NCBI GenBank assembly: GCA_001044195.1
Contig: LFCU01000241.1
Span: 1 to 20,221 of the forward strand
Source: Candidatus Achromatium palustre
GTDB lineage: Bacteria > Pseudomonadota > Gammaproteobacteria > Chromatiales > Chromatiaceae
DNA: 20,221 nucleotides
Reading direction: 5' to 3'
Part shown: positions 5,990 to 20,171 of the stretch, one piece after another
How positions within the stretch are numbered: the first letter of the stretch is position 1
How the letters are laid out: each line of letters begins with the position of its first letter
The notes under the pieces: model-generated
Seen by the model: the letters and a program-made list of their open reading frames with translations, nothing else
Told to the model about the DNA's origin: nothing
Database searches by the model: none
Program-made: the position numbers and the translations under genes

Positions 5990-7354
5990 TTATATCGAAT
6001 TTGTCATTGGTTCAATAGATACTCGCCCGTGTGCAAAGTCAAACGCCCTTACTCCTACAAACCGAAATGCGTGATTACGTTTACATCGTAGTTGCCTCCC
6101 AGAAGCAAGATGCACAATCCAGGTATCATTGCTTAAATTTTTGAGAGTCATCCCACGTTCTGGTGTCTCTTTTATTTCGGCCATTGGACGCTTAAATTGA
6201 AATTCCTGATTATCCAAATGGTGCTCATAGAGTTTGCGTCCATGAGTCGCTAAAATTTTAGTACCATTAGAAAATTTTAAATACCAACGTTTATTTGGAT
6301 GCTTGGTATCGCAAAATAGACATGTACAATTCTGATCGGAGATAAAAAAACGTTGGTGACAATTAGAGCATTCCGCCATACATTCCAACGCTTGCCAAAA
6401 TTCTCTAGCCCAAGTTGCCGCTGAATGGCGTTTTGTAGGATTTTTAAGCCCAATGGTGAATACTTGTTGAAATCTAGTTTGCATGGACTTTGGCAAATGA
6501 GCAAATGGAATACCATTAGTAGTAAAACGATTCCTACTATCTGTAGGATGTTCAGTAAAGATAGCACTAGTACCAAGTCCCTCATCTTCAGTCATGTAAT
6601 CCAAATTAAAATTCGGATCAACATCGCCTATAAATGGATGCCTAAACATGACTAAATAAAACAGTAGTACGGCCAAACTATGTCGATCCGTTTCCGCAGA
6701 TGGATGTGGATGTTGTGCTGTTATAAGCTCTGGTGCTCTAAAACCAGGAGTTCCAGCTACTTTTACTGGCAGATAGTTACTATTCCCACATGCAAGATTA
6801 TCGCAATCAATAAGACATATACTACCATCAGAGGTATTAAAAAATACATTACCCAAAGATAAATCGCAATGAGTCATCCCATGGCTATGAATCATCCGTA
6901 ACGCTTGCGAAAGGTAGAAGCCTGCTAATAAAAAATGATGATATTTATCATAATTGCTAAGTACAGAACGCAGGGCTGCACTTATAAATGGATTGGGTTG
7001 GTCATAAGGATCTGTAAGTAATGAATCGTGATTCAGTGGTTTACCTATCGCCAATTCCATTAGTACGCCAAATTCATTAGCAGAACTATATATAGCTCTG
7101 GGAAAGCAAACTTGGGCTTGGGGTAAAGTCCTGGCAATTTCTTTGGCAACATCGATGATTGTTTCTAGGCGTTCTTGCTGTTGATATAGTTCTGCTTGAG
7201 CGGGTAGTTTTTTAAATAATTTAAGGGCCATTTTATGGCTATCATGAGTGCGCTGGACTTGCCAGACATCAGCCTGTTGTCCAGAGCCTAGTGCAGCTTT
7301 ATACTTATATTCTTCGCCGTTAGTTGTAGTAAAGTTGGAGTTTTCTGTAGGCAT
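5990..7354 (-). CDS. Hanks-type Ser/Thr protein kinase (454 aa) with a C-terminal Cys-rich zinc-ribbon and an additional uncharacterised roughly 100-aa domain
   Basis: Kinase motifs are present: a G-loop LGSGQQADVW, the lysine in ALKLF, the catalytic loop HCDLSLGNV, a DFG-like DCD, and GTPGFRAPE. Cys clusters include CMAECSNCH and CTCLFCDTKH. Confidence 0.85.
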   Translation of the reverse strand: MPTENSNFTTTNGEEYKYKAALGSGQQADVWQVQRTHDSHKMALKLFKKLPAQAELYQQQERLETIIDVAKEIARTLPQAQVCFPRAIYSSANEFGVLMELAIGKPLNHDSLLTDPYDQPNPFISAALRSVLSNYDKYHHFLLAGFYLSQALRMIHSHGMTHCDLSLGNVFFNTSDGSICLIDCDNLACGNSNYLPVKVAGTPGFRAPELITAQHPHPSAETDRHSLAVLLFYLVMFRHPFIGDVDPNFNLDYMTEDEGLGTSAIFTEHPTDSRNRFTTNGIPFAHLPKSMQTRFQQVFTIGLKNPTKRHSAATWAREFWQALECMAECSNCHQRFFISDQNCTCLFCDTKHPNKRWYLKFSNGTKILATHGRKLYEHHLDNQEFQFKRPMAEIKETPERGMTLKNLSNDTWIVHLASGRQLRCKRNHAFRFVGVRAFDFAHGRVSIEPMTNSI

Positions 7355-7366
7355 GATATTAATAGG

Positions 7367-8272
7367 TTACAGATTGTAAAATACAGCTACCAGTGTTTTA
7401 TCATCATCAGAAAATTTATGTTCTTCCCAGTAATTACAATATGCTGTGGCATATTCTTCTAAAGCTACTGGATCATCTAAGCATTGTTTTAATTTTGGCC
7501 ATATAGCACTAAAATATAAGTTGGGATCGCCAATACTTTCACTCAGCCCATCGGTCATAAGGCAGAAACCTACACTATCTTTGTATTCAGTTATTCCAGG
7601 ACTTGACTCTGCAAAACCACGTTGCCATTCAGTGTTGGTTAACGGTCGAACTTCATTGACAAAGCCTTCACGTATATTTTCAGTTAAAAGCTGTGCTGCA
7701 ACTTTATCATCTGGTCTTGAAGAGATTTTATATATAGCACCATCTCCAACGATTGCTGCCCAGTAACCTTCAGAGTTTAAATATAGTAGTAATGCTGTTG
7801 TGGCGTATTCTGTTAAGTAGCCATCTACTAATGTTTGTGAAGATGTTTTTATATCCTGGGTATCATCTTTATTTTTATGACCAGTTTTATTTTGCTCGTT
7901 ATCTTCTTGGCATAATATTACAAACTTATCTCTAGCGTCAGTAAAGTAGTCTTTCAATTGATTGCTATTAAGAATACTTGTGCTTGCACCACTAAATACT
8001 TGACCCAGGGCAGTACAAGCACATTCAGCTCCTTTACGAGAGCGTGATCTGGTACTTACTCCATCTGCTACGGTTAGAGTCAGTGATTTAATATCATCTA
8101 CTTTTGTAGGTGTAGGCCAGTAAGCAGTAAAATCTTGGCATTCTGTACTTTGATCCACATGAGCTTTACCACGCCAAGAAAACGTTACAATTGCTATACT
8201 TTTGCCAGATATGTTGTAACGTTTAATTTTTGGAGGTATGCTAAAATGCTCAGAATTTAAATAAGCAGTCAT
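7367..8272 (-). CDS. PP2C-family Ser/Thr phosphatase (301 aa), the TerY-P phosphatase component
   Basis: Metal-binding Asp/Gly motifs are present: VADGVS, VGDGAIY and LMTDGLSE. It lies 8 bp after the vWA gene and 12 bp before the kinase gene. Confidence 0.8.
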   Translation of the reverse strand: MTAYLNSEHFSIPPKIKRYNISGKSIAIVTFSWRGKAHVDQSTECQDFTAYWPTPTKVDDIKSLTLTVADGVSTRSRSRKGAECACTALGQVFSGASTSILNSNQLKDYFTDARDKFVILCQEDNEQNKTGHKNKDDTQDIKTSSQTLVDGYLTEYATTALLLYLNSEGYWAAIVGDGAIYKISSRPDDKVAAQLLTENIREGFVNEVRPLTNTEWQRGFAESSPGITEYKDSVGFCLMTDGLSESIGDPNLYFSAIWPKLKQCLDDPVALEEYATAYCNYWEEHKFSDDDKTLVAVFYNL

Positions 8273-8279
8273 AGTGCTT

Positions 8280-8954
8280 TTAATTAACTAACTGAGTTCC
8301 AGGAATCTCACTTATGGGTCGTTTTTCTGAAATTTCTACTGTCAATGTCCTTAAATTTTTAAAAAAGCCACTGATAGTAGCTTGATCTTTCAGTCTAACA
8401 ATGTGCGATTTTTCTCTACCCTTATGGTAAAAGGCAGTTAAAACCGAATCGTTTATATCATCACCGGCTCCAGCAATTACTCTAATTCCAGCGACTCTAC
8501 CTGATGGTCTAGTGCCTATAAGAGGATTTTCATTCATAAGCTGTAATTGATCTTTCCAAGCTTGTTCGGAGCAATTAGGGTTACCATCGGTGATAAATAC
8601 AAATAATGGTTCTTTGCCTTTTTTTAATTCGTTTTTATTACGTTCTACTAATGCTAATACTTCTGCTAAACCTGCATCAAGGTTTGTGTATCCTGCTCCC
8701 ACTTCAATTTGAGGAATATCTATAGAGCCAATAGGTTGATGTTCAATGATAGTCTCAGCAATATCGCTAAAAGTTATCACCGATATAAAGACAGAATCAC
8801 GGGTATCTTCATTGCTTTGCAATTCTTCGATGTAATCACGAATGCCATTATTAGCCTGTTGTATACCAACTGGCTCCATACTATAAGATACGTCTACTAA
8901 CAATATAATGGGTATGGGTTTACGTGCAGTTGCACCATCTGGTATTTCAATCAT
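8280..8954 (-). CDS. TerY-like von Willebrand factor A domain protein (224 aa) with a MIDAS motif. It is the first gene of the operon.
   Basis: The MIDAS motif DxSxS is present as ILLVDVSYSM, with downstream FITDG. An AGGAA ribosome-binding site lies about 10 nt upstream of the ATG. An 876-bp AT-rich non-coding region lies upstream. Confidence 0.85.
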   Translation of the reverse strand: MIEIPDGATARKPIPIILLVDVSYSMEPVGIQQANNGIRDYIEELQSNEDTRDSVFISVITFSDIAETIIEHQPIGSIDIPQIEVGAGYTNLDAGLAEVLALVERNKNELKKGKEPLFVFITDGNPNCSEQAWKDQLQLMNENPLIGTRPSGRVAGIRVIAGAGDDINDSVLTAFYHKGREKSHIVRLKDQATISGFFKNLRTLTVEISEKRPISEIPGTQLVN

Positions 8955-9011
8955 GCTTTATTTATTCCTAATATATTACGACAAATAGTGGATTTCATTT
9001 TGTTTCTACTT

Positions 9012-9041
9012 ATTCTACATATTAATAGGCACAAAGATCAA
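9012..9041 (-). promoter_or_regulatory. Candidate sigma70-type promoter for the TerY-P/ZorAB-like operon (TTGATC-N18-TAGAAT on the minus strand)
   Basis: A -35-like TTGATC (reverse complement at 9036-9041) and a -10-like TAGAAT (reverse complement at 9012-9017) are separated by an 18-nt spacer, about 60 nt upstream of the vWA start codon. This was found by eye only. Confidence 0.25.
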
Positions 9042-9101
9042 CTACTTTCCAATTGCACTATAAAGGTCAAATTGTATTTGACACTATCTATATCAATTTT
9101 A

Positions 9102-9130
9102 GGGCATCCTTCATTTCTCAGTGTACAATT
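9102..9130 (-). repeat. Copy of the dispersed bipartite X/Y motif (reverse complement: AATTGTACACTGAG-AAATGAAGGATGCC)
   Basis: Its X unit matches AAATGAAGGATGCC at 9539-9552, and its organisation matches 1881-1907 and 15189-15225. Confidence 0.5.
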
Positions 9131-9400
9131 TATAGATTGGTTATATTTTTAGCATTCTTTATCAATACCTCGATGCTCAAAAGTTAGAAAACGCTTATAT
9201 ACTTAGATATGTTGACATTACATATTTTAATTAGATTTTTACTTGATTAGCTCTACTCAATATTGTATACGTTCTATCCTGTAGAAGCCTTATAGCTTAA
9301 GTAATTAAAATATTACCTAATACTAACTTTTGAACATCAAGAATGCTGATGCGAATATCCTATTTCCAATTCAAAAAGTGGGCATCATTCACCAACACCC

Positions 9401-9433
9401 AAAAGTAGTTTACACTTTAAGAAGGATGACGAC
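9401..9433 (-). repeat. Y-unit (AAAGTGTAAACTACTTT, reverse complement) plus a degenerate X-like unit (GAAGGATGAC). It forms a 17-bp inverted repeat with 9556-9572.
   Basis: AAAGTAGTTTACACTTT at 9401-9417 is the exact reverse complement of AAAGTGTAAACTACTTT at 9556-9572. Confidence 0.5.
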
Positions 9434-9520
9434 AAGTAAAATAAATTTTTTCTTAACTTGAAACATCTGATATATAAACACTTTTTAGAAATAAAAAATA
9501 TTTTCAATTTTTAATGTCCT

Positions 9521-9597
9521 TAAAAAGTGTTAACCGACAAATGAAGGATGCCAAAAAGTGTAAACTACTTTGTAGACGGAAATAAAGAATGCCACGA
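9521..9597 (+). repeat. Cluster of X/Y motif units: a Y-like unit, X (CAAATGAAGGATGCC), Y (AAAAAGTGTAAACTACTTTG), then an X-like unit (AAATAAAGAATGCC)
   Basis: The units were read directly from the sequence. They sit in the 876-bp intergenic region between the vWA gene and the second SiaB-like gene. Confidence 0.5.
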
Positions 9598-9720
9598 TTA
9601 AAATTGGATATGATTTCTTCCCCAATTATAACTTTATGCTTATTAAACAGGGAGAGGTTTTTAAATAATATCTAATGTTACAAATTTAATTTGGAAAAGT
9701 AGAATTTCTTAACAGAACAA

Positions 9721-9786
9721 TATAATGCGCATTAAACTTGATATGCACCAACGGGATGATATCACATTACTTGGTGTACGTATTTA
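9721..9786 (+). pseudogene. Relic 3' end of a PP2C/SpoIIE phosphatase gene (encodes MRIKLDMHQRDDITLLGVRI-stop). It is an imperfect direct repeat of 1771-1847.
   Basis: It is about 85 percent nucleotide identical to the last roughly 25 codons of the phosphatase gene at 855-1847 (IRIQLEMHQQDELQRDDITLLGVRV-stop). It carries a 15-nt in-frame deletion flanked by CCAAC microhomology. The final 35 nt are 31/35 identical. Confidence 0.6.
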
Positions 9787-9831
9787 AATATAGATAAAGA
9801 TTACCATAAACTTAAAATAGAGACAAAAATT

Positions 9832-10386
9832 ATGGATAATTTCGATGTTTTCGAATTTTATCAATTTATGCAAAGACAAAATGTGATTCTATCCTTCAAG
9901 GGAGAAATGTCACAGCAAATACTGGTTAATATTGGTGATTTATTGAAAGAAAAATTAGCATCTGAAGATACGGAAAAACAGGTCACTAAAAAAGTATTCT
10001 TCATTTTCGTTGAATTGGCGCAAAATATTCACCGTTATTCCGCTGATCGAGGCATTGAAGATAAAAAACGAGCAGGTACAGGTGTGTTATTTGTTAAAGA
10101 ATCTGCCAATTATTTCACAATTTTTGCTGGCAATAGAGTTGCTCCTCTGGAAGCAAAAGTGACCACCGAGCAATGTTTGGCAATTAGCCGATTAACGCCA
10201 AATGAACTGAAGCTATATTATAAAGAACAACTAAAACAACCGCGTGAAGATGAAACCTCTGGTGCTGCTGGTCTTGGACTTATTAGTATCGTCCGTAAAG
10301 CCGAAAACCCAATTGTTGCGTATACTATAGACATTGATACCAATGAAACTTTTTTGGTACTATCAGTTCAAGTGAATAAGGAATAA
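9832..10386 (+). CDS. SiaB/DUF6272-like histidine-kinase-like ATPase (partner-switch Ser/Thr kinase, 184 aa)
   Basis: The sequence has a GHKL-type N-box-like stretch (ELAQNIHRY), a G1-like stretch (TGVLFV) and a G2-box (GAAGLGLI). It is followed 4 nt later by a SiaC-like gene. Confidence 0.8.
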   Translation: MDNFDVFEFYQFMQRQNVILSFKGEMSQQILVNIGDLLKEKLASEDTEKQVTKKVFFIFVELAQNIHRYSADRGIEDKKRAGTGVLFVKESANYFTIFAGNRVAPLEAKVTTEQCLAISRLTPNELKLYYKEQLKQPREDETSGAAGLGLISIVRKAENPIVAYTIDIDTNETFLVLSVQVNKE

Positions 10387-10390
10387 ACCA

Positions 10391-10780
10391 ATGCAAGATC
10401 TAAAGATTGTTGGCACAAAAGATACATTAACCGTAAATTTTATAGTAGAATCTGGTATCTTGACATTGAAAGGAGCCTCTTATCCAGAAAATCCTGTTAA
10501 TTTTTTTGATCCGCTCTATACATGGATTACAACATATACACAAGAAATCCATAATACATTAACCGTGAATATGACGATTAATTATGTGAATACTAGTTCA
10601 TCTAAATGCTTACTTGATTTTTTAGAATTACTGGAAAATTATCATAATTCAGGCGGAAAGATTACGCTTAATTGGTACTATGAAGAGGATGATGAAGACA
10701 TGTTAGAGTGTGGTGAAGAATTGTGCGAAGATCTAAAGCTGCCCTACTCAATGATTCCAATTGTTGGGAATCCTGAATAA
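10391..10780 (+). CDS. SiaC-like DUF1987 partner-switch phospho-protein (129 aa)
   Basis: It has the LKGASYPEN motif and an acidic C-terminus, and is paralogous to 341-730. Confidence 0.8.
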   Translation: MQDLKIVGTKDTLTVNFIVESGILTLKGASYPENPVNFFDPLYTWITTYTQEIHNTLTVNMTINYVNTSSSKCLLDFLELLENYHNSGGKITLNWYYEEDDEDMLECGEELCEDLKLPYSMIPIVGNPE

Positions 10781-10956
10781 TTCGTATTTTATAGGATTTA
10801 CGCACTGATAACATAATCTTCCCGTATTTTGATGTAACTGTTTATAAAAATATAGAAATATTGTAAATTTTTATTTATCAATGCATAAATCCGATATTAT
10901 ATCTACCCGAAACCGCAAATTTAGCGAGTTACGTTAAACGTAATTCTTCTTAGTAG

Positions 10957-10981
10957 TAGGGTGCGCAATGCGCACCCTACC
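10957..10981. terminator. Perfect palindromic hairpin (11-bp GC-rich stem GTAGGGTGCGC, loop AAT) between convergent genes. It may act as a bidirectional terminator or RNA-stability element.
   Basis: GTAGGGTGCGCAATGCGCACCCTAC is a perfect palindrome. It lies between the SiaC-like stop at 10780 and the caspase-Sel1 gene stop at 11245. No strong T-tract follows on either strand. Confidence 0.4.
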
Positions 10982-11074: not shown

Positions 11075-11218
11075 TAGGATGGGTAGAGCGAAGCGAAACC
11101 CATCAAATCCATCTCATAATCTATTACGCCCAAAGTTTTTTGTCATTACTTTGGATTGATGTAAAGGTTGCAAATATAATTTTTGAATGATGGGTTTCGC
11201 TTCGCTCTACCCATCCTA
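11075..11218. mobile_element. MITE-like element of about 144 bp, with 30-bp perfect terminal inverted repeats (TAGGATGGGTAGAGCGAAGCGAAACCCATC) and an 84-bp AT-rich core
   Basis: Positions 11075-11104 are the exact reverse complement of 11189-11218. The core has its own 7-bp stem (CCAAAGT...ACTTTGG) and no ORF. It lies 27 bp downstream of the caspase-Sel1 stop codon. Confidence 0.5.
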
Positions 11219-11244: not shown

Positions 11245-14200
11245 TTATTGCTTTATAAGTTTTTCGAGTTTTTCTACCTCATTCTTTGCGTTAGTATGTC
11301 CCTGAGCAGCAGCCTTTTGGTACCACTTTAGAGCCTCTTTGTAATCTTGAGTGACTCCGTCGCCATTGTCATACATAACGCCAATATTGTATTGCGCATC
11401 AGCATCCCCTTGAGCAGCAGCCTTTTGATACCACTTTAGAGCCTCTTTGTAATCTTGAGGTACTCCTTGGCCATTGTCATACATAAATCCAATCTGTAAT
11501 TGTGCATTAGCATTCCCTCTAGCAGCGGCCTTTTGAAACCACTTTAGAGCTTCTTTGTAATCTTGAGATACGCCTTGGCCATTTGCATACATAAATCCAA
11601 TATAAATTTGAGCATCAGTATGTCCCTGAGCAGCAGCCTTTTGATACCACTTTAGAGCCTCTTTGTAGCTTTGATGGACTCCTTGACCATTGTAATACAT
11701 AAGACCAATATTGTATTGCGCACCAACATTCCCTTGAGCAGCGGCCTTGCGATACCAATTTAGAGCCTTTTTATAATCTTTAGGCACTCCTTGTCCATTT
11801 GCATACATAACACCAATATTGTATTGCGCATACGCATCACCTTGAGCAGCAGCTTTTTGAAACCATTTTAATGCTTGATTGTAATCTTGAGGTATACCCT
11901 TGCCACTAAGGTATATATCACCTATCCCATTTTGTGCATCGGCATTACCTTGATATGCGGCTTTATTCCACCACTCTAATGCATCCGCGTAGTTTTGATA
12001 TATTCCTTGGCCACTGTAGTACATAAAACCAATATTGTATTGCGCATCAGCATTCCCTTGAGCAGCGGCCTTGTGATACCACTTTAGTGCCTCTTTATAG
12101 TCTTGAGGTACGCCTTGACCGTTGTGATACATAACACCAATATTGTATTGCGCATTAACATACCCTTGAGCAGCGGCCTTTTGATACCACTTTAGAGCCT
12201 CTTTGTAATTTTGAGGTACTCCTTGGCCATTGTAATACATAAGACCAATATTGGATTGCGCACCAACATTCCCTTGAGCAGCAGCCTTTTGATACCACTT
12301 TAGAGCCTCTTTGTAATTTTGAGGTACTCCTTTACCAATGTTATACAGGGCACCAATATTGCTTTGTGCTTTAGCATTCCCTTGAGCAGCAGCCTTTTGG
12401 TACCACTTTAGAGCCTCTTTGTAATCTTGAGATACGCCTTGGCCATTTGCATACATAACACCTATCCCATTTTGTGCATCGGCATTACCTTGAGCAGCGG
12501 CCTTGTGATACCACTTTAGTGCCTCTTTATAGTCTTGAGGTACGCCTTGACCGTTGTGATACATAACACCAATATTGTATTGCGCATTAACATACCCTTG
12601 AGCAGCGGCCTTTTGATACCACTTTAGAGCCTCTTTGTAATTTTGAGGTACTCCTTGGCCATTGTAATACATAAGACCAATATTGGATTGCGCACCAACA
12701 TTCCCTTGAGCAGCGGCCTTGCTCCACAATTTGAATGCCTCTTTGTAGCTTTGAGGAACACCTTTACCCAAAGCGTACATCAATCCAATATTGCTTTGTG
12801 CTGTAGCATTCCCTTGAGCAGCGGCCTTGCGATACCAATTTAGAGCCTCTTTGTAATCTTGAGATACGCCTTGGCCATTTGCATACATAAATCCAATCTG
12901 TAATTGTACATTAGCATTCCCTTGAGCAACAGCCTTTTTATACCACTTTAGAGCCTCTTTGTAATTTTGAGGTACACCTTGGCCATTGTAATACAGCCCA
13001 CCAATATTGTATTGCGCACCAACATGCCCTTGAGCAGCAGCCTTTTGGTACCACTTTAGAGCCTCTTTGTAATTTTGAGGTACTCCTTGGCCATTGTGGT
13101 ACATCCAACCAATATTGTTTTGAGCAGATTTAAGTCCTTGAGCAGCAGCTTTGTGGAACCATTTCAAGGCTTTTTTGTAATTTTGAGTTACATTTTTGCC
13201 AAGATAATAAGTAATGCCAATATTAAATTGCGCATTAGCATATCCTTGAGCTGCTGCTTTATGAAACCATTTTAGAGCCTTCTTAGGATCTTTAGGTATA
13301 CCTTTACCATCACGATACATAACACCAATATTGTGTTGCGCCTCAACATGACCTTGAGCAGCAGCTTTGCGATACCAATTTAGAGCTTCTTTATAATCTT
13401 TAGATACACCTTGGCCATGGTGGTACATCCAGCCAACACCGACTTGCGCAATAGCATCACCTTGAGCAGCAGCTTTGTGGAACCATTTCAAGGCTTTTTT
13501 GTAATTTTGAGGTACACCTTGGCCATTGTAATACAGGCTACCAATATTGTATTGCGCACCAACATCTCCTTGAGCTGCTGCTTTATGAAACCATCTAAGA
13601 GCTTCTTTGTAGTCTTTGGTTACGCCTTCACCATTGCGGTACACCAGACCAATATTGTTTTGTGCTCTAGCATTTCCTTGGGCTGCTGCTTTGTGATACC
13701 ATTTAAGAGCTTCTTTGTAATCTTTGGCTACGCCTTCACCTGAACTATAAGCAATGCCGACAGCATTTTGTCCGTTACTATTATTTTGCGCAGCAGACAG
13801 ACGAAACCATTTCAATGCCTCTTTAGAATTCTGGGCTACGCCTAGCCCCATAGCATATATTTTACCAAGCTCATATTGAGCTTCAGCATCACCGTGAGCT
13901 GCTGCTTTGCGATATTTTTTTAGAGCCGCTGCTTGATCTTGGGGAGAACTTGAAGAATTATCCTCATGTTTCGGAGCCTCTAACTTTGCTAGTTTTAATT
14001 CCATACTCGCTGTTGTGGCCTTAAACTGTTGCTGCATCTGTTGCATACGTGATTCTAACTGCTGACGCTGTTGGCGTTCGGCAGCTAGTTGAGATTGTAA
14101 TCTAGCAACTTGCGGATTTTCTACAACTGGTGGGCTGGAGAGATACAGGGCATCTTCTAAAGAGGAAGAATCCCAAGGGATTTGAAAGCCTCTGGTCTCT

Positions 14201-15090
14201 TGCTTTACATCCTTACGTACCTTACGCAGAACAAACTGAATATCCCCTGGAGTATTGATATATTTGAGGAGATGCTTGGTAAAAGTACCATTACGACCAT
14301 GACCATCCTCAGCTACACTATTAGGACTCGTTGCATAGACTAATAGAGTATCCGATGGAGTATTCATCCTTGCCAAACCTGAACGCATTCTCCGGCCCTT
14401 GACACCACGGCTTAAAAATGGATTATTACGACAGGCATCTAAAAAAACTATTTTAGTTTTGGCCGCTTTAATCTTAATCAATAATTGACTGGCACGAATA
14501 GCTTGGCGTTCGATTTGATCTTCACGCTTAAAATACGCATCTACTGGTAATAGATAATTTTCGCCCTTGACCTGAACACCATGTCCTGAATAATAGACTA
14601 AAGCTATATCACCAGCCTGTAATTGCAGACCAAAATTATGGATCGCATCATCCATCTCTAACAACTTGGCATCTTTGAGCAATGCAACTTTAAAACCTAA
14701 ACCTTGCAAGGCATTGCTCATATCCTCGGCATCGTTAGCTGGATTTAATAATGGCGGTAAATCACTCGGCATGGCACTGTAGGCTGAATTACCGATTACC
14801 AGAGCCATACGGCGACTGGTAACTCTTCCTAATGCTTTAGTTTGGGTAGGTTTGGTAACAGGAGGCTTATTGGCTATAGCACCAGAATCACCAGTATTTC
14901 TGGTAGCTATTTTGGTAGCTATTGGAGTAGATTGTTTAGGCTTGCTAGCAACTATAGTACTAGGTTTTTTAGTATCTTTAGTAAACAGATTATTGTTGCA
15001 GCCAGTAATCAATAGAGTTAGGCCGATGCTACATAGCCATAATGGCCATGCAGACAACTGGAGAGTTTTAATTAGTTGTTTTAGAAACAT
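11245..15090 (-). CDS. Large lipoprotein (1281 aa) with four parts: signal peptide and lipobox, a caspase-like peptidase C14 domain, a coiled-coil, and about 25 Sel1-like repeats
   Basis: The N-terminus MFLKQ...LLITGCNNN ends in an LITGC lipobox. The caspase His/Cys dyad is present in YYSGHGVQ and VFLDACRNNPF. A Q/R-rich coiled-coil occupies about residues 320-390. A 36-aa Sel1 consensus (AQYNIGVMYxNGQGVPQDYKEALKWYQKAAAQGN) is repeated through to the C-terminus. Confidence 0.85.
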   Translation of the reverse strand: MFLKQLIKTLQLSAWPLWLCSIGLTLLITGCNNNLFTKDTKKPSTIVASKPKQSTPIATKIATRNTGDSGAIANKPPVTKPTQTKALGRVTSRRMALVIGNSAYSAMPSDLPPLLNPANDAEDMSNALQGLGFKVALLKDAKLLEMDDAIHNFGLQLQAGDIALVYYSGHGVQVKGENYLLPVDAYFKREDQIERQAIRASQLLIKIKAAKTKIVFLDACRNNPFLSRGVKGRRMRSGLARMNTPSDTLLVYATSPNSVAEDGHGRNGTFTKHLLKYINTPGDIQFVLRKVRKDVKQETRGFQIPWDSSSLEDALYLSSPPVVENPQVARLQSQLAAERQQRQQLESRMQQMQQQFKATTASMELKLAKLEAPKHEDNSSSSPQDQAAALKKYRKAAAHGDAEAQYELGKIYAMGLGVAQNSKEALKWFRLSAAQNNSNGQNAVGIAYSSGEGVAKDYKEALKWYHKAAAQGNARAQNNIGLVYRNGEGVTKDYKEALRWFHKAAAQGDVGAQYNIGSLYYNGQGVPQNYKKALKWFHKAAAQGDAIAQVGVGWMYHHGQGVSKDYKEALNWYRKAAAQGHVEAQHNIGVMYRDGKGIPKDPKKALKWFHKAAAQGYANAQFNIGITYYLGKNVTQNYKKALKWFHKAAAQGLKSAQNNIGWMYHNGQGVPQNYKEALKWYQKAAAQGHVGAQYNIGGLYYNGQGVPQNYKEALKWYKKAVAQGNANVQLQIGFMYANGQGVSQDYKEALNWYRKAAAQGNATAQSNIGLMYALGKGVPQSYKEAFKLWSKAAAQGNVGAQSNIGLMYYNGQGVPQNYKEALKWYQKAAAQGYVNAQYNIGVMYHNGQGVPQDYKEALKWYHKAAAQGNADAQNGIGVMYANGQGVSQDYKEALKWYQKAAAQGNAKAQSNIGALYNIGKGVPQNYKEALKWYQKAAAQGNVGAQSNIGLMYYNGQGVPQNYKEALKWYQKAAAQGYVNAQYNIGVMYHNGQGVPQDYKEALKWYHKAAAQGNADAQYNIGFMYYSGQGIYQNYADALEWWNKAAYQGNADAQNGIGDIYLSGKGIPQDYNQALKWFQKAAAQGDAYAQYNIGVMYANGQGVPKDYKKALNWYRKAAAQGNVGAQYNIGLMYYNGQGVHQSYKEALKWYQKAAAQGHTDAQIYIGFMYANGQGVSQDYKEALKWFQKAAARGNANAQLQIGFMYDNGQGVPQDYKEALKWYQKAAAQGDADAQYNIGVMYDNGDGVTQDYKEALKWYQKAAAQGHTNAKNEVEKLEKLIKQ
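11270..13910. repeat. 108-bp tandem DNA repeat of about 24 units encoding the Sel1 repeats, with higher-order near-identical 432-bp (4-unit) duplications
   Basis: For example, 12049-12290 is near-identical to 12481-12722 (offset 432). The protein shows a 4-repeat block duplicated almost verbatim (NVGAQSNIGLMYYNGQGVPQNYKEALKWYQKAAAQGYVNAQYNIGVMYHNGQGVPQDYKEALKWYHKAAAQGNADAQ occurs twice). Confidence 0.85.
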
Positions 15091-15133
15091 TATTAATCTT
15101 CTTTTGATAGTAAAATTTCTCTATAGATATAAA

Positions 15134-15225
15134 GGTGTCCTTCAGTTTACACTTTTTTTATCGTTCCCACGCTCTGCGTGTGAACGATTAGTGTAAAGTA
15201 CTGTTGAAGACAAATGAAGAATGCC
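15134..15225. repeat. Two copies of the X/Y motif in inverted orientation in the caspase-Sel1 gene upstream region. 15134-15158 is the reverse complement of AAAAAGTGTAAACTGAAGGACACC, and 15189-15225 reads TAGTGTAAAGTACTGTTGAAGACAAATGAAGAATGCC.
   Basis: The motif was read from the sequence. GTTTACACT at 15147-15155 and AGTGTAAAG at 15190-15198 form an inverted pair. The X unit CAAATGAAGAATGCC matches 9538-9552 and 9581-9594. Confidence 0.5.
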
Positions 15226-15398
15226 GATATATAGTTAAGAATTGTGCCAATTATCCAACAGATATGACACTTGGCTGATATACATCAGTGAAAATATTTT
15301 AGTCTAGTCTACTACAATAGTACAAAATTGTAAATTTTTTTGAGATCATACCCACCTTACATGTCTAATGTCCATTTAGAACTTCATTTGCAAAAATT

Positions 15399-15794
15399 TT
15401 AGACAGGTTCCACAACCACTAATTCAATATCGCCATTCTCTAGCACTTTTTCTTCCTCAATAATCAACCCCTGTTCTGCTACCTGTTTTTTGATTGCCAA
15501 ATGTGCGTAAACACGATTTACATCCTGCATAAATTCTTCTTCCTGAATTTTAGTAGTTCGTTTAATACCCCACCAATCAGTACAAACGGCGTAAGTGTTA
15601 TCTTCTTGACGTTGAAAACCAATGCTATATCTCCCACCAGTGTCGACTACAATCTGGCCGAGTTCAGTATTGTCTTGATAGCCATAGATTGGTAAATCTT
15701 CACCAGTCTGAAATTCATATTCTAATTGACGTAAAGTCTCCTCTAATAGTATTTGGTCGGTAATTTGGGTTTTAACTTGAGAAAAATGAGACAT
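15399..15794 (-). CDS. DUF1257/Ycf35-like small protein (132 aa from the internal start MSHFSQVKTQI...)
   Basis: From memory, the N-terminus MSHFSxxKTQIxD resembles the Ycf35/DUF1257 family found in cyanobacteria and plastids. An AGGAA ribosome-binding site lies about 9 nt upstream of the ATG at 15794. The longer 153-aa ORF from 15860 lacks a ribosome-binding site and adds a non-conserved extension. Confidence 0.55.
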   Translation of the reverse strand: MSHFSQVKTQITDQILLEETLRQLEYEFQTGEDLPIYGYQDNTELGQIVVDTGGRYSIGFQRQEDNTYAVCTDWWGIKRTTKIQEEEFMQDVNRVYAHLAIKKQVAEQGLIIEEEKVLENGDIELVVVEPV

Positions 15795-15929
15795 ATTAGG
15801 GTTCCTAAAAAATAATTTAAATGTATTATACTCGACTATCCAGTTTTTTTGACTTGACAAATTTGTAGGGCGGGAGAACGAAGTGATCCAGCCTTCTATA
15901 TAAGTTTACTATTTTGCAATAATGTTGGA

Positions 15930-15947
15930 TTGCCAAACAGATGGCAA
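15930..15947. promoter_or_regulatory. Inverted repeat TTGCCA-N6-TGGCAA in the divergent intergenic region between the DUF1257-like and vault-protein genes. It is a candidate operator.
   Basis: The sequence reads ttgccaaacagatggcaa, and the arms extend to 8 bp with one mismatch (GATTGCCA/TGGCAACC). It lies about 100 bp upstream of the MVP start codon. Confidence 0.3.
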
Positions 15948-16045
15948 CCCAACCTACGATGCTTATTGACAAGTGACATTATTCTGGTACATTTTCTTAT
16001 AAACATCCTAAATTTAACTTAAATATAATATTTTAAATAATAAAT

Positions 16046-18562
16046 ATGGAAGACCGAAACTCCAAACGCGACCTGGTGCTAGCCCCAGGTGAATACGCTT
16101 ATATGCAAGATGTCACTAAAGGCGTGATCAAAACTTACACCGGTCCTACAGTGATTAATCCCACCGCTCAAGAACGTGCAGTCTCTTTTAATGAAGCTAG
16201 CAAACGTTTTGAACCTTGTCAAATTGAGCAAGCCGTACAACGATGCGCCATTGCACCTGAAGGCTATTATATTATCCTCAAAAATCCTGCGGTCAAAGGA
16301 GATTTTCCACCCTTTGGCGGAGTATTTCCATCTCCAGATCTAGACGTAGGTAAAAAGATCAATCTCACAGGTCCCTGCATGTTTTCCCTGTGGCCAGGCC
16401 AGATCTTTAAGCTAGTCCAAGGTCATCATTTACGCTCCAATCAGTATCTATTAGTAAGAGTATATAATGAAGACGAAGCCAGGCGTAACTGGACCAAAGC
16501 CATTGTAAAACCAGCAACCACAGATGGCCAAGCTGAAACCACGGATATTATGAGCGATGCCCCACGTGATCTCAACGTGGGCAGCCTCTTTATCATCAAA
16601 GGTACTGATGTCTCATTCTACATCCCACCAACTGGAGTCGGAGTGGTACCAGATGAACATGGCCAATACGTGCGCGATGCCCTTACCTTAGAACGATTAG
16701 AATACTGTATTCTAGTAGATCAAAATGGCAAAAAACGCTTTGAACGAGGCCCTCAAGTAGTCTTCCCTGAACCTACAGAATCATTTATTACCCGTGATAG
16801 CCAACGCAAATACAGAGCTTTAGAACTAAATGAGATTCAGGGTTTACACATCAAAGTCATCGCCCCCTATACTGAAGGCGAACGCCAATACAAAGAAGGT
16901 AATGAAATATTTATCACTGGTAAAGAAACGGCTATCTATTTTCCGCGTGAAGAGCACTCATTGGTACGCTATGATGGTAGAGATAAACACTTTGCCGTAG
17001 CCATTCCCTCTGGAGAAGCTCGCTATGTGATGAATCGCAAGACAGGAGCTATCCACATGGTACCTGGTCCGGCCATGTTATTACCTAATCCTGTAGATGA
17101 GGTGATAGTACGCCGTGTGCTATCTGAAAAAGAATGTAGCACCTGGTATCCAAGCAGCAAAGAGGCTCTAGCCTATAATCGTAGTCTCTACCAATTAGCT
17201 TCTGTAACCCCCACCACCCGCTCTGGTGCTGTATCTGAAGGCGATGTCCAACGCAGCCGCCGTCGTGCTGGAAAAAATGCACCACAGGCATCAGTAGCAA
17301 TGGAAGCTAGTGCAGTAAGCCGTGACACTAACACTATGGCTGGAGATATAGTAGAACGTGGTTCTACATTTACCCAGCCCCGTACTCTAATTTTTAATAC
17401 CAAATTTGAAGGAGTACCCAATGTTAATGTGTGGGTAGGCTATGCCATAATGATTGTCAATAAGCAGGGACAGAGACGTGTTGAACAAGGCCCTAAAAAT
17501 ATCTTGCTAGAATATGATGAAACTTTACAAGCGATTTCATTATCTCGAGGTCGTCCCAAATCTACATCACAATGTTTAGAAACAGTATATTTACGAGTTT
17601 TAAATAATCAAATTAGTGATCGCTGCACAGTAGACACCAGCGATTATGTACGGGTACGTTTAGAATATGCTTTGCGAGTAAACTTTGTAGGTGAACCCAA
17701 TCGTTGGTTTGAAGTTGAAAATTATGTGCAATTTTTGTGTGATCATGTTCGAGCGATACTTAAAGGTGCCATCAAGCATTATAATATCGAAACGCTATTA
17801 GCTGGTGCCTTTGAAATTCTCCACGATATCGTCTTAGGGCCATTAGCAGATGGGAAGCGTACTGGTATGACCTTTGCTGAGAATGGAATGCAGGTAACTG
17901 ACATTGAAGTACTTGAAGTTGCTATTGAGGACAAAGCTACTTCAAATCTGTTAGATAAAGCGCAACAGGAAGTAGTTGAAAACAATGTCGCCTTAGCACG
18001 TGCTAATAGAGAACTTGAAGTGACTCGGCAACGTGAAGCCATTGCACGGCAGATGTTAACTGCTAAAGCTGAAACTTCACAACATCAAAATCAGTTAGCC
18101 ATAAATGTGGTGCAAGAGCAGCTAGAGCTACAGCTAGCTAAAATCCGTTCAGAAATCAATACTCACACAGAAACCGAACAGGCTCATAAAGCAAAACAAC
18201 AAATGTTGGATGTAGAACATCAGGCTAAAATCGAACGTGATAAACAAAGTGCTGATCTACAGCATACCATAGCGAGTCGTAAGCAGGAGTTGCAGCTTGA
18301 GACTCTTAAAGCCGAGGTAGCAAGTGCAGTACAGAGATTTGAGGCTGCCCAAAGTGGATTCTCCGAAGCTCTCTTGGCATTGAATAATCATGAAACCCTA
18401 ATTAAGATTGCCGAGGCTATGAGTGTGCAAAATTTTGTCGGTGGTCGTAGTTTAACTGACGTATTAGATAAGATCTTTACTGATACTCCACTACAGTCTC
18501 TATTAGAAACCGTAAAAAACAAGGCTAGTTTGCCAAATTCTATCACTAAGTCCAGCTCGTAG
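16046..18562 (+). CDS. Major vault protein (MVP) homolog, 838 aa. It has N-terminal MVP repeat domains, a shoulder domain and a C-terminal coiled-coil cap-helix region.
   Basis: The N-terminal repeats match the eukaryotic MVP repeat signature (LAPGEYAYMQDVTKGVIKTYTGP...ERAV; APEGYYIILKNPAV). The shoulder-domain region SLSRGRPKSTSQCLETVYLRV...YVRVRLEYALRVNF closely parallels human MVP [21 protein letters not shown]...HARLQLQLAYNWHF. The last roughly 200 aa are a Q/E/A-rich coiled-coil. Confidence 0.85.
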   Translation: MEDRNSKRDLVLAPGEYAYMQDVTKGVIKTYTGPTVINPTAQERAVSFNEASKRFEPCQIEQAVQRCAIAPEGYYIILKNPAVKGDFPPFGGVFPSPDLDVGKKINLTGPCMFSLWPGQIFKLVQGHHLRSNQYLLVRVYNEDEARRNWTKAIVKPATTDGQAETTDIMSDAPRDLNVGSLFIIKGTDVSFYIPPTGVGVVPDEHGQYVRDALTLERLEYCILVDQNGKKRFERGPQVVFPEPTESFITRDSQRKYRALELNEIQGLHIKVIAPYTEGERQYKEGNEIFITGKETAIYFPREEHSLVRYDGRDKHFAVAIPSGEARYVMNRKTGAIHMVPGPAMLLPNPVDEVIVRRVLSEKECSTWYPSSKEALAYNRSLYQLASVTPTTRSGAVSEGDVQRSRRRAGKNAPQASVAMEASAVSRDTNTMAGDIVERGSTFTQPRTLIFNTKFEGVPNVNVWVGYAIMIVNKQGQRRVEQGPKNILLEYDETLQAISLSRGRPKSTSQCLETVYLRVLNNQISDRCTVDTSDYVRVRLEYALRVNFVGEPNRWFEVENYVQFLCDHVRAILKGAIKHYNIETLLAGAFEILHDIVLGPLADGKRTGMTFAENGMQVTDIEVLEVAIEDKATSNLLDKAQQEVVENNVALARANRELEVTRQREAIARQMLTAKAETSQHQNQLAINVVQEQLELQLAKIRSEINTHTETEQAHKAKQQMLDVEHQAKIERDKQSADLQHTIASRKQELQLETLKAEVASAVQRFEAAQSGFSEALLALNNHETLIKIAEAMSVQNFVGGRSLTDVLDKIFTDTPLQSLLETVKNKASLPNSITKSSS

Positions 18563-18582
18563 GGTGGCAAGGTTATGGCCCA

Positions 18583-18621
18583 AAGATTAGTGATATACTA
18601 TAAAGATTATTGATATACTAT
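18583..18621. repeat. Tandem direct repeat of 2 x 19 nt, period 20 (AAGATTAGTGATATACTAT / AAGATTATTGATATACTAT)
   Basis: Read from the sequence. It lies in the convergent intergenic region between the MVP stop at 18562 and the solute-binding-protein stop at 18752. Confidence 0.6.
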
Positions 18622-18751
18622 GTAGATATCAACATGAAATGTAATTGAGACAATTTAGATGATATGTTTAAAATGCGGCTCATCAATCAATTAAAAATCA
18701 CTAACCCTTGGGCAACAACCCGCAAATAAGTAGCACACCCTACCTTTATTT

Positions 18752-20044
18752 CTAGGCTAAAAGCAATTCATTCCAACGTGGCAAAGAATAATCATAAGAA
18801 GCCATAACAGTATTCCAAACCGCTACATGATTAAAACGTTCCCAATAAGAACCACCATTACGCCGTTCTCCAGCACGAACAATAATGCGGTTTCGATTAT
18901 CCACAAGATCATGCACTGCTACCTTACCTTGATACCAATAATCCCATTCCGCATCTGACATATAAGGCTTAACTCGGTCTGGTACTGATATATAATATCC
19001 TTGCCGCGCCACATAGGCCCCTGGCCAACCAGATAACCACCAGTTCATATATTCATAAGCCGCATCACGTACCCGGCCCTTGGTACGTTTTGAAAGACAT
19101 AAAACTCCATGCCAAGCACGATAGCCTTCTCGAGGCGCAGCATAGACTACAGGCATACCTTGGGCATTAAGAGAAACAGCGGCAGGTTCAAACATACTAG
19201 AAATTACCGAGCGGCCTTCTAACATGTATTCAGCAGAAACTGGAATAGCATCCCAAAAGCCACTAAAATGTCCAAGCTGTTTTTTGCTGATCAGTAAAGC
19301 GAAAAGTTGATCTAGCTCTGGTTTTGTTAAGTCTCCTAAGTCTTTAAAATTAAGTAATCCTGTAGCTTGTGCGGCTAATGCCATATCAAATAAGCCGATA
19401 GTGGGGTCATTTACTAATGCTACTTTGCCGCGCCACTTATCATCAAGTAGCCAGCTCCAAGATTCAGTGTCATAAGGCTGCCCTCTAGGTATTATTTGGG
19501 TGTTATAACCAAAGGAATCTACATTGTGGACGTAGGGTACAAAGCTAATATAATTTGAAGGTTGGTTGCTTAGAGTGCGATTGTTTTGGACATAGAGCAG
19601 CTCATAAGGTCTATCCCCTAAACCTAATGGTGCATGAGGTGAAAGTCTCCCCATTTTGGTTAAGGAATTAATTTCATCCCAAAGTGGAATGCGTTTCCAT
19701 TCGATAGGTTGGATGGCTTCAGCATCCCATAAAATATTAATGCTATTAGACCATTGTTCATAAACATCAAAAGTTTCAGGTCGCATGGAGGCTTTTTGTA
19801 GTACCTGGGTATTGCCTCCAGCTTCAAAAATGATGTTGATTCCTAGATCTTGCATCACCTGTTGGCGAATTGGTTCTTGGAGGGTGGCATGAGTTCCTAT
19901 AACTCTAAGGGTAGGTTTTGTTGCTGTATGTACCCAAGGGGCGTTTATTAGGGTAAGTCCACCTAATATATTAGCTGTTTGGGTTAGGAATTTGCGACGC
20001 TGTAGGTTTGGTGTATCGCTAATTGCTAAATTTTGTTCTTTCAA
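18752..20044 (-). CDS. Periplasmic ABC-type solute-binding protein (430 aa) with a twin-arginine (Tat) signal peptide
   Basis: The N-terminus has a Tat motif QRRKFLTQTANILGGLTL followed by a hydrophobic h-region. Its size and Trp/Tyr-rich composition are typical of family-1 extracellular solute-binding proteins. The ligand class cannot be assigned from the sequence alone. Confidence 0.55.
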   Translation of the reverse strand: MKEQNLAISDTPNLQRRKFLTQTANILGGLTLINAPWVHTATKPTLRVIGTHATLQEPIRQQVMQDLGINIIFEAGGNTQVLQKASMRPETFDVYEQWSNSINILWDAEAIQPIEWKRIPLWDEINSLTKMGRLSPHAPLGLGDRPYELLYVQNNRTLSNQPSNYISFVPYVHNVDSFGYNTQIIPRGQPYDTESWSWLLDDKWRGKVALVNDPTIGLFDMALAAQATGLLNFKDLGDLTKPELDQLFALLISKKQLGHFSGFWDAIPVSAEYMLEGRSVISSMFEPAAVSLNAQGMPVVYAAPREGYRAWHGVLCLSKRTKGRVRDAAYEYMNWWLSGWPGAYVARQGYYISVPDRVKPYMSDAEWDYWYQGKVAVHDLVDNRNRIIVRAGERRNGGSYWERFNHVAVWNTVMASYDYSLPRWNELLLA

Positions 20045-20171
20045 TGTTACACTATTCCAAATATTAGCTATGGATCTGGTAACTCAATATTATCATCTAT
20101 GCTTAAAAAATATGAATACTATGGTTCTTTGGACTTTAATGTACAAATCAGATAAGGTATGGTCACAAAAA

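Follow-up and report, generated by a model that had tools for sequence, protein, structure and literature searches.

A single reading frame of 3.8 kb, without a frame break, lies on the minus strand at positions 11245-15090 of contig LFCU01000241.1 of Candidatus Achromatium palustre, whose 20,221 nucleotides were analysed in full and are referred to here as the window. The ORF list and its translation give an intact protein of 1281 aa, and no start codon precedes the ATG at 15090 once the in-frame stop upstream of it has been passed. A lipoprotein signal, a T/K/P-rich tether, a Peptidase_C14 domain, a heptad helix and a Sel1 array follow one another in that order. The gene appears to be monocistronic, and two promoter matches fall in the 308-bp region upstream of its coding sequence. 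The features are as follows.

15306-15374, minus strand: two sigma-70-like promoter matches (consensus scan, 10/12 and 9/12; weak evidence)
11245-15090, minus strand: complete coding sequence of the caspase-Sel1 lipoprotein, 1281 codons plus the stop at 11245-11247
14998-15090, minus strand: predicted lipoprotein signal peptide, residues 1-31 (scripted PROSITE-type lipobox pattern)
14827-14997, minus strand: low-complexity tether, residues 32-88, 57 aa (T/K/P/A-rich composition)
14143-14814, minus strand: Peptidase_C14 (caspase/orthocaspase) domain, residues 93-316 (Pfam, E=2.6e-46)
13975-14115, minus strand: Q-rich, heptad-patterned alpha-helical linker, residues 326-372 (heptad scan)
11248-13938, minus strand: Sel1-like array, residues 385-1281 (Pfam Sel1, 24 stretches, E=5e-273)
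12056-12282, no strand assigned: exact 227-bp duplication, copy A (from the end of unit 18 through the whole of unit 17 to the start of unit 16)
12488-12714, no strand assigned: exact 227-bp duplication, copy B (units 14-13-12)

The flanks are as the first-pass annotation described them, with SiaB-like and SiaC (partner-switch) genes on one side, convergent with the caspase gene, and an MVP-like (vault) gene on the other, divergently transcribed, with a DUF1257 gene and 308 bp in between; 2.3 kb from the caspase gene is a vWA-PP2C-kinase cluster. Homologues of 12 neighbouring genes were found at none of the 96 related-caspase loci (934 kb), and two other MVP loci have no caspase neighbour. Given this lack of conservation, the convergent SiaB/SiaC genes and the separated MVP gene, no functional meaning of the location between partner-switch and vault-like genes is detectable.

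The C-terminal array comprises 24 complete 36-aa units and a truncated 25th, which ends in a C-terminal capping helix; at 897 aa (24.5 units) and without any indel, it agrees with the roughly 890 aa and 25 units of 36-residue repeats noted at first sight. The unit consensus is DYKEALKWYxKAAAQGNAxAQxNIGxMYxNGQGVPQ, in which per-column conservation marks the scaffold positions as conserved and about 10 columns as variable (positions 10, 17-19, 22-23, 26, 29-30 and 35). A phmmer search matched the array to the solved SLR proteins 6OK3 and 4BWR at E about 1e-93 (down to 6e-94).

At the DNA level the proposed 108-bp period was recovered by TRF (22.5 copies, 76% matches), but the description of the array as near-identical higher-order repeats was not borne out: pairs of units are on average 72.5% identical, only the pair 13/17 is fully so, and the remaining pairs range from 49 to 93%. 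Nor are four-unit blocks of 432 bp duplicated almost perfectly, as had been suggested, since identity at offset 432 (0.74) is no better than at 108 (0.73) or 324 (0.74), and units 12-15 are 88, 100, 83 and 62% identical to units 16-19. The example given for such duplication, 12049-12290 versus 12481-12722, is itself correct (237 of 242 positions identical) and contains the exact 227-bp duplication, which was defined by an offset-432 scan with 0 mismatches, is about two units long and resembles a tract left by gene conversion or recent duplication. At all other offsets exact matches reach at most 56 bp. Between units pS is 0.49 and pN 0.185 (pN/pS 0.38); the Sel1 units are old at synonymous sites.

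The warning that the array might be unstable and mis-assembled thus applies in part: a change of plus or minus 432 bp (4 units) is possible at the 227-bp tract, and instability is confined to it because the rest of the array is only about 73% identical. A short-read assembly graph would loop at an exact 227-bp duplicate, so the protein could be real but its repeat count wrong, with 20.5 or 28.5 units in truth, or with a count that varies among the many chromosome copies of one cell. The copies lie 432 bp apart, the assembly is probably an Achromatium draft made with MiSeq and SPAdes from MDA-amplified DNA of a single cell (PMC4806510), and Achromatium cells are described as hyperpolyploid and heterozygous (10.1101/2020.06.06.138032). 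Against this, units differing by about 27%, with exact matches no longer than 56 bp, would have been assembled unambiguously from MiSeq reads outside the tract, and the ORF is unbroken over its whole length. MiSeq v2 reads extend up to 250 nt and could bridge 227 bp. We regard a wrong count as unlikely, if not negligibly so.

The N-terminus carries the lipoprotein signal ending in LITGC that had been reported. In this Sec/lipoprotein signal, SIGLTLLITGC fits the PROSITE PS51257-type pattern, Cys31 (codon 14998-15000) is the predicted lipidated residue, the n-region holds the basic residues K4 and K8, and the 12-mer Kyte-Doolittle maximum is 2.3. Canonical lipoboxes occur in at least 14 homologues, and of the 108 homologues whose N-termini are complete, 91 begin with a hydrophobic segment. 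Because the +2 residue after Cys31 is N32, not Asp, the protein would be placed on the outer membrane if the E. coli sorting rule applies. The tether that follows (T10 K9 P6 A6 N5) had no match in the Pfam search; exported and lipidated, the protein would hang in the periplasm by this flexible segment.

The first-pass annotation had also proposed a C14 His/Cys dyad, and this is well founded. The Peptidase_C14 match is full-length (profile positions 1-233 of 233) and includes both His170 (YYSGHG, codon 14581-14583) and Cys220 (FLDACRN, codon 14431-14433), with which YYAGHG and LLDMCRK of human MALT1 align (phmmer, E=1e-12, about 26% identity; the alignment ends at the catalytic Cys), bringing the G-H-G and D-x-C-R motifs into register. 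The AF2 model of the protease domain (pLDDT 78, pTM 0.82; model residues 137-153 are of low confidence) matched MALT1 in Foldseek at E=2e-16 and TM 0.77-0.78. The protein is classed as a caspase-family cysteine protease (MEROPS C14), a prokaryotic orthocaspase of the DxCR type, and judged by the model and the alignment, the MALT1 paracaspase (PDB 3V4O, 3UO8 and others) is its best match among solved structures in sequence and fold. MALT1 is a cytosolic protein that bears death and Ig domains and gains its activity in the CBM signalosome, whereas the Achromatium protein is predicted to be exported and has a Sel1 array.

Three aspartates, D120, D218 and D262, form a predicted acidic S1 pocket; together with the His and Cys they are invariant among 11 relatives in alignment A1 (where they are D35, D133 and D177). 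D120 and D218 align with the MALT1 acidic S1 residues D365 and D462, and D262 would, by manual alignment, be the counterpart of MALT1 E500. The conserved pocket suggests cleavage after Arg or Lys; a P1 preference for these two residues, owing to an acidic pocket, is shared by all C14 members outside the caspases proper that have been characterised (PMC5756287). The catalytic Cys is followed by a basic, low-confidence loop, residues 222-238 (SRGVKGRRMRSGLAR), a candidate for autoprocessing, a step on which the orthocaspase MaOC1 depends (PMC5756287).

Between protease and array, residues 326-372 are helical and heptad-patterned in one dominant register, as the coiled-coil claim implied: L, I, V, M or F occupies 9 of its 13 a/d positions, compared with 7 in one of the six alternative registers and 0-3 in each of the remaining five. 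A single-sequence AF2 model renders the linker as one long helix (pLDDT 60-73), but the predicted structure of helix plus Sel1 region as a whole has a pLDDT of 44, too low to give a solenoid geometry. An analogous A/E/K/Q-rich helical linker is present in the closest homologues, P0002 and P0005. The segment is a probable coiled coil and dimerisation element, to go by its heptads.

The caspase-Sel1 architecture is not new and is already common in bacteria. An N-terminal caspase with 7-19 C-terminal Sel1 repeats was found in at least 15 distinct clusters, and 22 further caspase-Sel1 cases occur among the 96 related loci. Sel1, counted as a protein-interaction domain, is reported in 6% of prokaryotic metacaspases (40 of 671), the third commonest of the domains fused to them (PMC3501461). 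The gene at 11245-15090 is real and its array unusually long; as the combination is common and most of the DNA repeats have diverged well, it encodes a large yet ordinary caspase-Sel1 fusion. Examples include Sulfuritalea hydrogenivorans WP_052473686.1 (785 aa), proteins of Sulfitobacter spp. (~650 aa) and proteins of a Lentisphaerota MAG (1555 aa) and a Thermoguttaceae MAG (1186 aa), all of which share with the Achromatium protein a signal sequence, an N-terminal C14 His/Cys domain, a linker and C-terminal Sel1, in that order. They differ in having a type I signal peptide instead of a lipobox, and the array is longer here (24 Pfam Sel1 stretches versus 7-19 in seven Pfam-scanned relatives). 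Because the caspase domains of long-array caspase-Sel1 proteins are only 32-48% identical to this one, its Sel1 fusion probably arose independently.

The closest caspase domains belong instead to caspase-coiled coil-FGE-sulfatase proteins, P0005 (63%; Gammaproteobacteria bacterium, with a lipobox-like N-terminus, LMLSSGC) and P0002 (61%). Both have the same basic loop behind the catalytic Cys and, beyond the protease, the same long helical linker, but carry a C-terminal FGE-sulfatase (C-type-lectin-like) in place of the Sel1 array, which implies swapping of C-terminal modules. The lipoproteins P0012-P0023 (~520 aa) likewise combine a lipobox, Sel1 and a C14 domain (53-56% identical), with the domain order reversed and just 1-3 Sel1 units. 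The database has many Sel1 arrays of 20-37 units, and Legionella EnhC has about 21 SLRs. Long periplasmic or secreted Sel1 proteins belong to the same repeat family and are exported alpha-solenoids that bind proteins or peptidoglycan enzymes and lack a protease domain; among them are EsiB (4BWR, whose annotation reads E. coli CFT073 locus c5321), 6OK3, H. pylori HcpC (1OUV) and Legionella LpnE (6DEH).

The swappable binding module also accords with another possibility, an extracytoplasmic immune-type or programmed-death sensor-effector in which Sel1 senses an invader or damage ligand and the caspase then cleaves envelope proteins, so that infection is aborted or the cell dies, in parallel with the sensor plus caspase/trypsin conflict systems enriched in multicellular and giant bacteria. 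FGE-sulfatase (C-type-lectin fold subtype) is a proposed antigen sensor in conflict systems (bioRxiv 10.1101/2023.09.22.558884), Achromatium, which is giant and polyploid, is known for its multiple diversity-generating retroelements (DGRs), the PADLOC caspase model gives a weak hit, and the vWA-PP2C-kinase cluster is close by. However, the profile searches proposed at the outset matched Peptidase_C14 and Sel1 (Pfam) but not CHAT; the NCBIfam EACC1-associated caspase model, at 66.9 bits, fell short of its cutoff of 140; and the weak match to the PADLOC caspase model (36 bits, E=9e-10) covers only generic positions 5-130 of 453. The window holds no NTPase, no TIR or effector-associated domain and no gasdermin partner, no DGR is present, the repeats are under purifying, not diversifying, selection, and the gene looks monocistronic with neighbours not conserved in the clade. 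With a protein exported rather than cytoplasmic, the suggested likeness to CHAT/defence-type death effectors finds no direct support, and we consider an immune role quite improbable. A non-catalytic scaffold whose caspase fold only binds partners, like the ~16% of homologues in prokaryotes without the catalytic dyad, is scarcely credible even though catalytic residues are substituted in a substantial share of prokaryotic metacaspase-like proteins (PMC5756287), as His170, Cys220, G-H-G, D-x-C-R and the three acidic pocket residues are all present and invariant among the 11 relatives.

The best functional reading remains the general idea behind the first-pass one, a binding module plus a protease in the envelope, and we think it fairly probable that the gene encodes an exported, lipid-anchored, Arg/Lys-specific orthocaspase that faces the periplasm and uses its Sel1 solenoid as a binding platform. 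Such a protein is probably a zymogen at synthesis and may be activated by helix-mediated dimerisation, by autocleavage in the Arg/Lys-rich loop, or by both. The long Sel1 superhelix would serve as a recognition platform, recruiting periplasmic or envelope proteins, possibly peptidoglycan-associated ones, as substrates or activators; Sel1 is among the peptidoglycan-associating modules of membrane-proximal conflict systems (PMC7159879). Across the clade the C-terminus would be interchangeable between FGE-sulfatase, PEGA, TPR and Sel1, which would make the protease the constant effector and leave the C-terminus to set its target.

The caspase gene is a single long ORF on the - strand (11245-15090), given by the ORF list of the window and its translation as a protein of 1281 aa. 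Pfam placed Peptidase_C14 (PF00656) at residues 93-316, with the profile matched over its full length (1-233 of 233, E=2.6e-46), and returned 24 separately significant stretches of Sel1 (PF08238, E=5e-273). When the protein was cut every 36 residues, the Sel1 register ran perfectly from residue 385 to the C-terminus (897 aa, zero indels), giving 24 complete units and a truncated 25th whose second half passes into a terminal helix. Homology of the array to solved Sel1-like repeat (SLR) proteins (6OK3, E=6e-94; 4BWR, E=1e-93) suggests that it folds as a right-handed alpha/alpha superhelix. Residues 326-372 display one strong heptad register, with L/I/V/M/F at 9 of 13 a/d positions (five of the alternative registers have 0-3 and the sixth has 7). 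In an otherwise poor single-sequence AF2 model (residues 320-1281, mean pLDDT 43.7), residues 326-371 form one long helix.

The N-terminus, MFLKQLIKTLQLSAWPLWLCSIGLTLLITG up to Cys31, fits a PS51257-type lipobox pattern (SIGLTLLITGC); its n-region contains Lys4 and Lys8, its signal hydrophobic core has a KD of 2.3, and Cys31 is directly followed by a Thr/Lys/Pro-rich tether of 57 aa. The caspase-Sel1 protein is accordingly a predicted lipoprotein, having a signal peptide with a lipobox and a basic n-region. Sel1 proteins are typically periplasmic. Among the top homologues with a complete N-terminus, a hydrophobic segment at that end is present in 91 of 108 and a strict lipobox in at least 14, by which predicted export is a property of the caspase clade. 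Clade-wide export makes Met95 a less likely start than the annotated one and speaks against a death or defence effector in the cytoplasm; a start at Met95, which would yield a cytoplasmic protein, is also unlikely because this position holds V/L/I in a conserved 'RRxALVIGN' strand. Since the carbonate bodies of Achromatium reportedly lie in an expanded periplasm (PMC6995342), the exported caspase-Sel1 protein would sit there. The lipoprotein signal, C14 domain, coiled-coil and long Sel1 array described in the first-pass annotation are thus borne out by Pfam, the lipobox pattern and the heptad register.

Several other profile matches were rejected as identities of the protein. The NCBIfam equivalog MerG (phenylmercury resistance protein, NF033786, ~217 aa) scored 442 bits against a curated cutoff of 350, because 16 separate partial Sel1 stretches of the 1281-aa protein were summed, so that the score is an artefact rather than orthology. 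MotX, AlgK and ExoR (NCBIfam) were discarded as Sel1 repeat summation or partial matches, and Flu_M1_C, TPR variants, NIL and other minor Pfam matches, with zero individually significant stretches, as repeat noise. Long Sel1 proteins could be misnamed in this way by automated annotation, for example as NCBIfam MerG. Two antisense ORFs on the + strand (13411-13743 and 14852-15196) look like by-products of repeat composition, and Rfam and tRNA scans of the whole window found no match.

Among solved relatives of the protease domain, the best by sequence were MALT1 paracaspase chains (E=1e-12), with YYSGHG (His170) aligned to MALT1 YYAGHG and FLDACRN (Cys220) to LLDMCRK. In an alignment of the caspase domain with 10 homologues, His170, Cys220 and Asp 120, 218 and 262 are invariant. 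A Foldseek search with an AF2 model of residues 86-321 (pLDDT 78, pTM 0.82) had MALT1 in all of its first 34 places (E down to 2e-16, TM 0.77-0.78), ahead of caspases 1, 7 and 9 and GSU0716 of Geobacter. The predicted structure is a caspase-hemoglobinase fold (p20-type alpha/beta domain) of family C14, and the caspase fold and His-Cys dyad proposed at first reading hold in the full Pfam profile, the MALT1 alignment and the model. In the MALT1 alignment, D120 and D218 stand opposite D365 and D462 (numbering offset derived by hand), residues which we take to belong to the acidic S1 pocket; D262 presumably corresponds to MALT1 E500, by manual alignment only.

The sole low-confidence internal loop of the model (model residues 137-153, protein residues 222-238) lies right after the catalytic Cys and is Arg/Lys-rich (SRGVKGRRMRSGLAR); on the model it is taken to be the counterpart of the caspase intersubunit linker, and it is a candidate autoprocessing site. 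According to a review (PMC5756287), every non-caspase C14 enzyme characterised cleaves behind Arg or Lys by means of an acidic pocket, prokaryotic homologues commonly have the DxCR motif, and MaOC1, the one characterised orthocaspase, requires autoprocessing for activity. When one review was written, biochemical work had characterised only a single orthocaspase, from a cyanobacterium. From the conserved acidic residues, the basic loop and the properties of characterised C14 enzymes, we infer by analogy an Arg/Lys-specific zymogen that may autoprocess in loop 222-238.

A search with the N-terminal 386 aa returned >7000 homologues, none of them a product ~99% identical to the caspase N-terminus in the protein database. 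The nearest were a 230-aa fragment (75% identity) and two proteins combining caspase, coiled coil and FGE-sulfatase (61-63%); the latter thus carry the nearest caspase domains with another C-terminal module than Sel1, which argues for module swapping. Profile and peptide scans found no orthologue above 54% identity in genome contigs or above 48% in metagenome contigs. Look-ups of the caspase, MVP and kinase proteins by identical sequence gave no match, nor did 52-mers sought without mismatch in both contig sets. To survey the architecture, the caspase domain with the linker and seven Sel1 units was used as query in a full-library HMMER search followed by domain mapping and Pfam. Among the top 150 cluster representatives at 50% identity, 20 combine Peptidase_C14 with 8-21 Sel1 units, in the same order (caspase N-terminal, Sel1 C-terminal) in 15 of the 20, and most of these relatives have cleavable signal peptides. 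Three examples are as follows.

Caspase-Sel1 proteins outside Achromatium
Lentisphaerota MAG, 1553-1555 aa
Thermoguttaceae MAG, 1186-1193 aa
Sulfuritalea hydrogenivorans WP_052473686.1, 785 aa

Sel1 units were likewise found in 25 of 103 caspase ORFs from 96 related genomic or metagenomic loci, with the same order in 22 of the 25, and several of these caspase-Sel1 ORFs come from cultured Sulfitobacter species. Among the domains found in fusion with prokaryotic metacaspases, Sel1 ranks third in frequency (40/671, or 6%; PMC3501461), and the fusion is treated further in PMC5756287 and PMC4933709. Arrays of 20-37 Sel1 units are common in the protein library irrespective of caspase, whereas seven Pfam-scanned caspase-Sel1 fusions have 7-19 Sel1 stretches against 24 in the Achromatium protein. 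What is specific to the latter among such fusions is the array length and the lipobox, and the gene is an unusually long member of a documented class, the exported orthocaspase with a Sel1 scaffold.

At the DNA level, the array has a period of 108 bp (TRF, 22.5 copies, 76% matches) in a window of ~38% GC. The first-pass annotation had described near-identical higher-order repeats of four units, citing 12049-12290 and 12481-12722. This pair is real (237 of 242 positions identical), as is the 108-bp period, but the near-identity is confined to one exact tract of 227 bp (12056-12282 = 12488-12714), and exact matches at the remaining multiples of 108 bp do not exceed 56 bp. Higher-order periodicity was rejected, as identity over all multiples of 108 bp is flat (0.54-0.76) and falls only with distance, with no lag-4 peak except the 227-bp tract; mean identity is 0.74 at an offset of 432 bp, 0.73 at 108 bp and 0.74 at 324 bp. 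In a 24x24 unit matrix the mean DNA identity is 72.5% and units 13 and 17 are the only identical pair, units 12-15 and 16-19 being 88, 100, 83 and 62% identical unit by unit. Differences are most numerous at third codon positions (3841, versus 2558 at first and 1784 at second), and units 3-24 have a pS of 0.49 and a pN of 0.185. The array is old and under purifying selection, with one recent gene-conversion or duplication tract.

That the repeat number was miscounted in the assembly is possible, with less weight than the reading of the product as a lipid-anchored protease. The draft of Ca. Achromatium palustre, whose 16S is 99% identical to that of WMS3, is a single-cell MDA/MiSeq/SPAdes assembly (PMC4806510; PMC4530308), and Achromatium is described as hyperpolyploid and heterozygous (10.1101/2020.06.06.138032); in a short-read single-cell assembly of such an organism the 227-bp exact repeat could be mis-resolved. 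The realistic risk of misassembly or instability would be a change of +/-432 bp (four units) mediated by this tract.

An extracytoplasmic immune sensor is a further possible reading, again with less weight than a lipid-anchored protease. Against it, Pfam gave no match to CHAT (PF12770) at E<=0.01, the NCBIfam model caspase_w_EACC1 scored 66.9 bits, under its cutoff of 140, and the PADLOC caspase model matched weakly and generically (36 bits over profile positions 5-130 of 453). The genes around the caspase gene are as follows.

9832-10780, + strand: SiaB-like (DUF6272) and SiaC pair, convergent with the caspase gene
15399-15860, - strand: DUF1257 gene, preceding the caspase gene with a gap of 308 bp
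16046-18562, + strand: gene for a major vault protein (MVP)-like product, divergent from the DUF1257 gene

No defence partner (NTPase, EAD, gasdermin, CRISPR and similar) stands beside the gene, whose flanks are DUF1257, MVP-like, SiaB-like and SiaC. With these thresholds not reached, no partner genes and a protein that is predicted to be exported, the proposed likeness to CHAT or defence effectors is not sustained. The placement between a partner-switch locus and a vault gene was correct as to the flanking genes, but the neighbours do not recur: none of the 12 neighbouring genes had a tblastn match (E<=1e-5) in the 96 related caspase loci (934 kb), and two other bacterial MVP loci are without a caspase or Sel1 neighbour. 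A functional link of the caspase gene to its neighbours was rejected on these grounds, and the gene looks stand-alone, with no operon or system evident.

The MVP homologue is full-length (838 aa, MVP_shoulder and Vault_3) and forms a divergent pair with the DUF1257 gene (15399-18562). One database protein matches it at 100% identity. At E<=0.001 the database contains 4766 homologues, of which the best 120 listed are 60-77% identical; the named ones among these 120 are mostly from Myxococcota-type MAGs (Myxococcales, Kofleriaceae, Nannocystaceae), and its 90% cluster includes a fragment from Achromatium sp. WMS3. A 162-aa protein without Pfam match precedes the MVP gene in three other loci. A Logan contig (SRR1771809) is 99.2% identical to window 15840-20160 over 4.3 kb, covers the MVP and solute-binding-protein genes and extends past the right end of the window to Peptidase_M24 and aldo-keto reductase genes; it breaks at window 15840, within the DUF1257 gene, and does not reach the caspase gene.

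On the other side, a perfect 31-nt inverted repeat (TAGGATGGGTAGAGCGAAGCGAAACCCATCA and its reverse complement, arms 11075-11105 and 11188-11218 around 82 nt) begins 27 nt past the stop codon of the caspase gene; its 24-mer core, with 0 matches in 100 shuffles, would not arise by chance, and the element (11075-11218) looks like a MITE or REP-type element. A hairpin with a 12-bp stem (GTAGGGTGCGCA-T-TGCGCACCCTAC, 10956-10980) lies between the convergent genes. The SiaB-like (DUF6272) and SiaC pair occurs in two copies on the + strand, at 85-1847, where a SpoIIE/PP2C-type phosphatase (SiaA-like) follows, and at 9832-10780, indicating that the partner-switch module is duplicated within 10 kb. The intergenic region 8955-9831 (877 bp) is unusually AT-rich (GC 0.28 over 9001-10000), contains several imperfect inverted repeats and a perfect 17-nt one (9402-9418 and 9555-9571), and has no Rfam or tRNA match. 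A co-directional cluster on the - strand (2216-8954) consists of the following genes.

8280-8954, - strand: vWA protein
7367-8272, - strand: PP2C phosphatase
5990-7354, - strand: Ser/Thr kinase
4151-5962, - strand: 603-aa protein without Pfam match, with weak PADLOC matches to ZorA (MotA/ExbB-like)
3404-4045 and 2216-3235, - strand: two OmpA/MotB-like proteins

This cluster looks like a vWA-phosphatase-kinase triad with a Zorya-like membrane motor module.

The caspase gene is genuine, with an architecture that has been described before and DNA repeats that have mostly diverged. For the product, a lipid-anchored periplasmic protease specific for Arg/Lys is a fairly probable role, in which the Sel1 solenoid would bind substrates or activators and the protease would be switched on through dimerisation or autoprocessing. 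It is quite unlikely, though conceivable, that the protein is an extracytoplasmic surveillance protease of this giant, hyperpolyploid bacterium, triggered by ligand via its long Sel1 solenoid. In such a case, the very long solenoid would have taken the place of the lectin-like FGE sensor of the nearest relatives, and a ligand (part of a phage or predator, damaged peptidoglycan, or a constituent of the periplasmic pockets reported to contain calcium carbonate) would induce coiled-coil-mediated dimerisation and thereby caspase activation outside the cytoplasm, a periplasmic counterpart of proximity activation of the apoptosome or CBM type.

To our knowledge, nearly all that is known of caspase homologues in bacteria relates to roles in death or defence within the cytoplasm. 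If the functional reading as a lipid-anchored protease is true, the Achromatium protein would be an extreme case of a widespread class of exported caspases aimed by interchangeable modules (Sel1, TPR, FGE-sulfatase, PEGA), and a periplasmic caspase that combines Arg/Lys specificity with a scaffold of 24 units would lend itself as a model for the substrates of this class.
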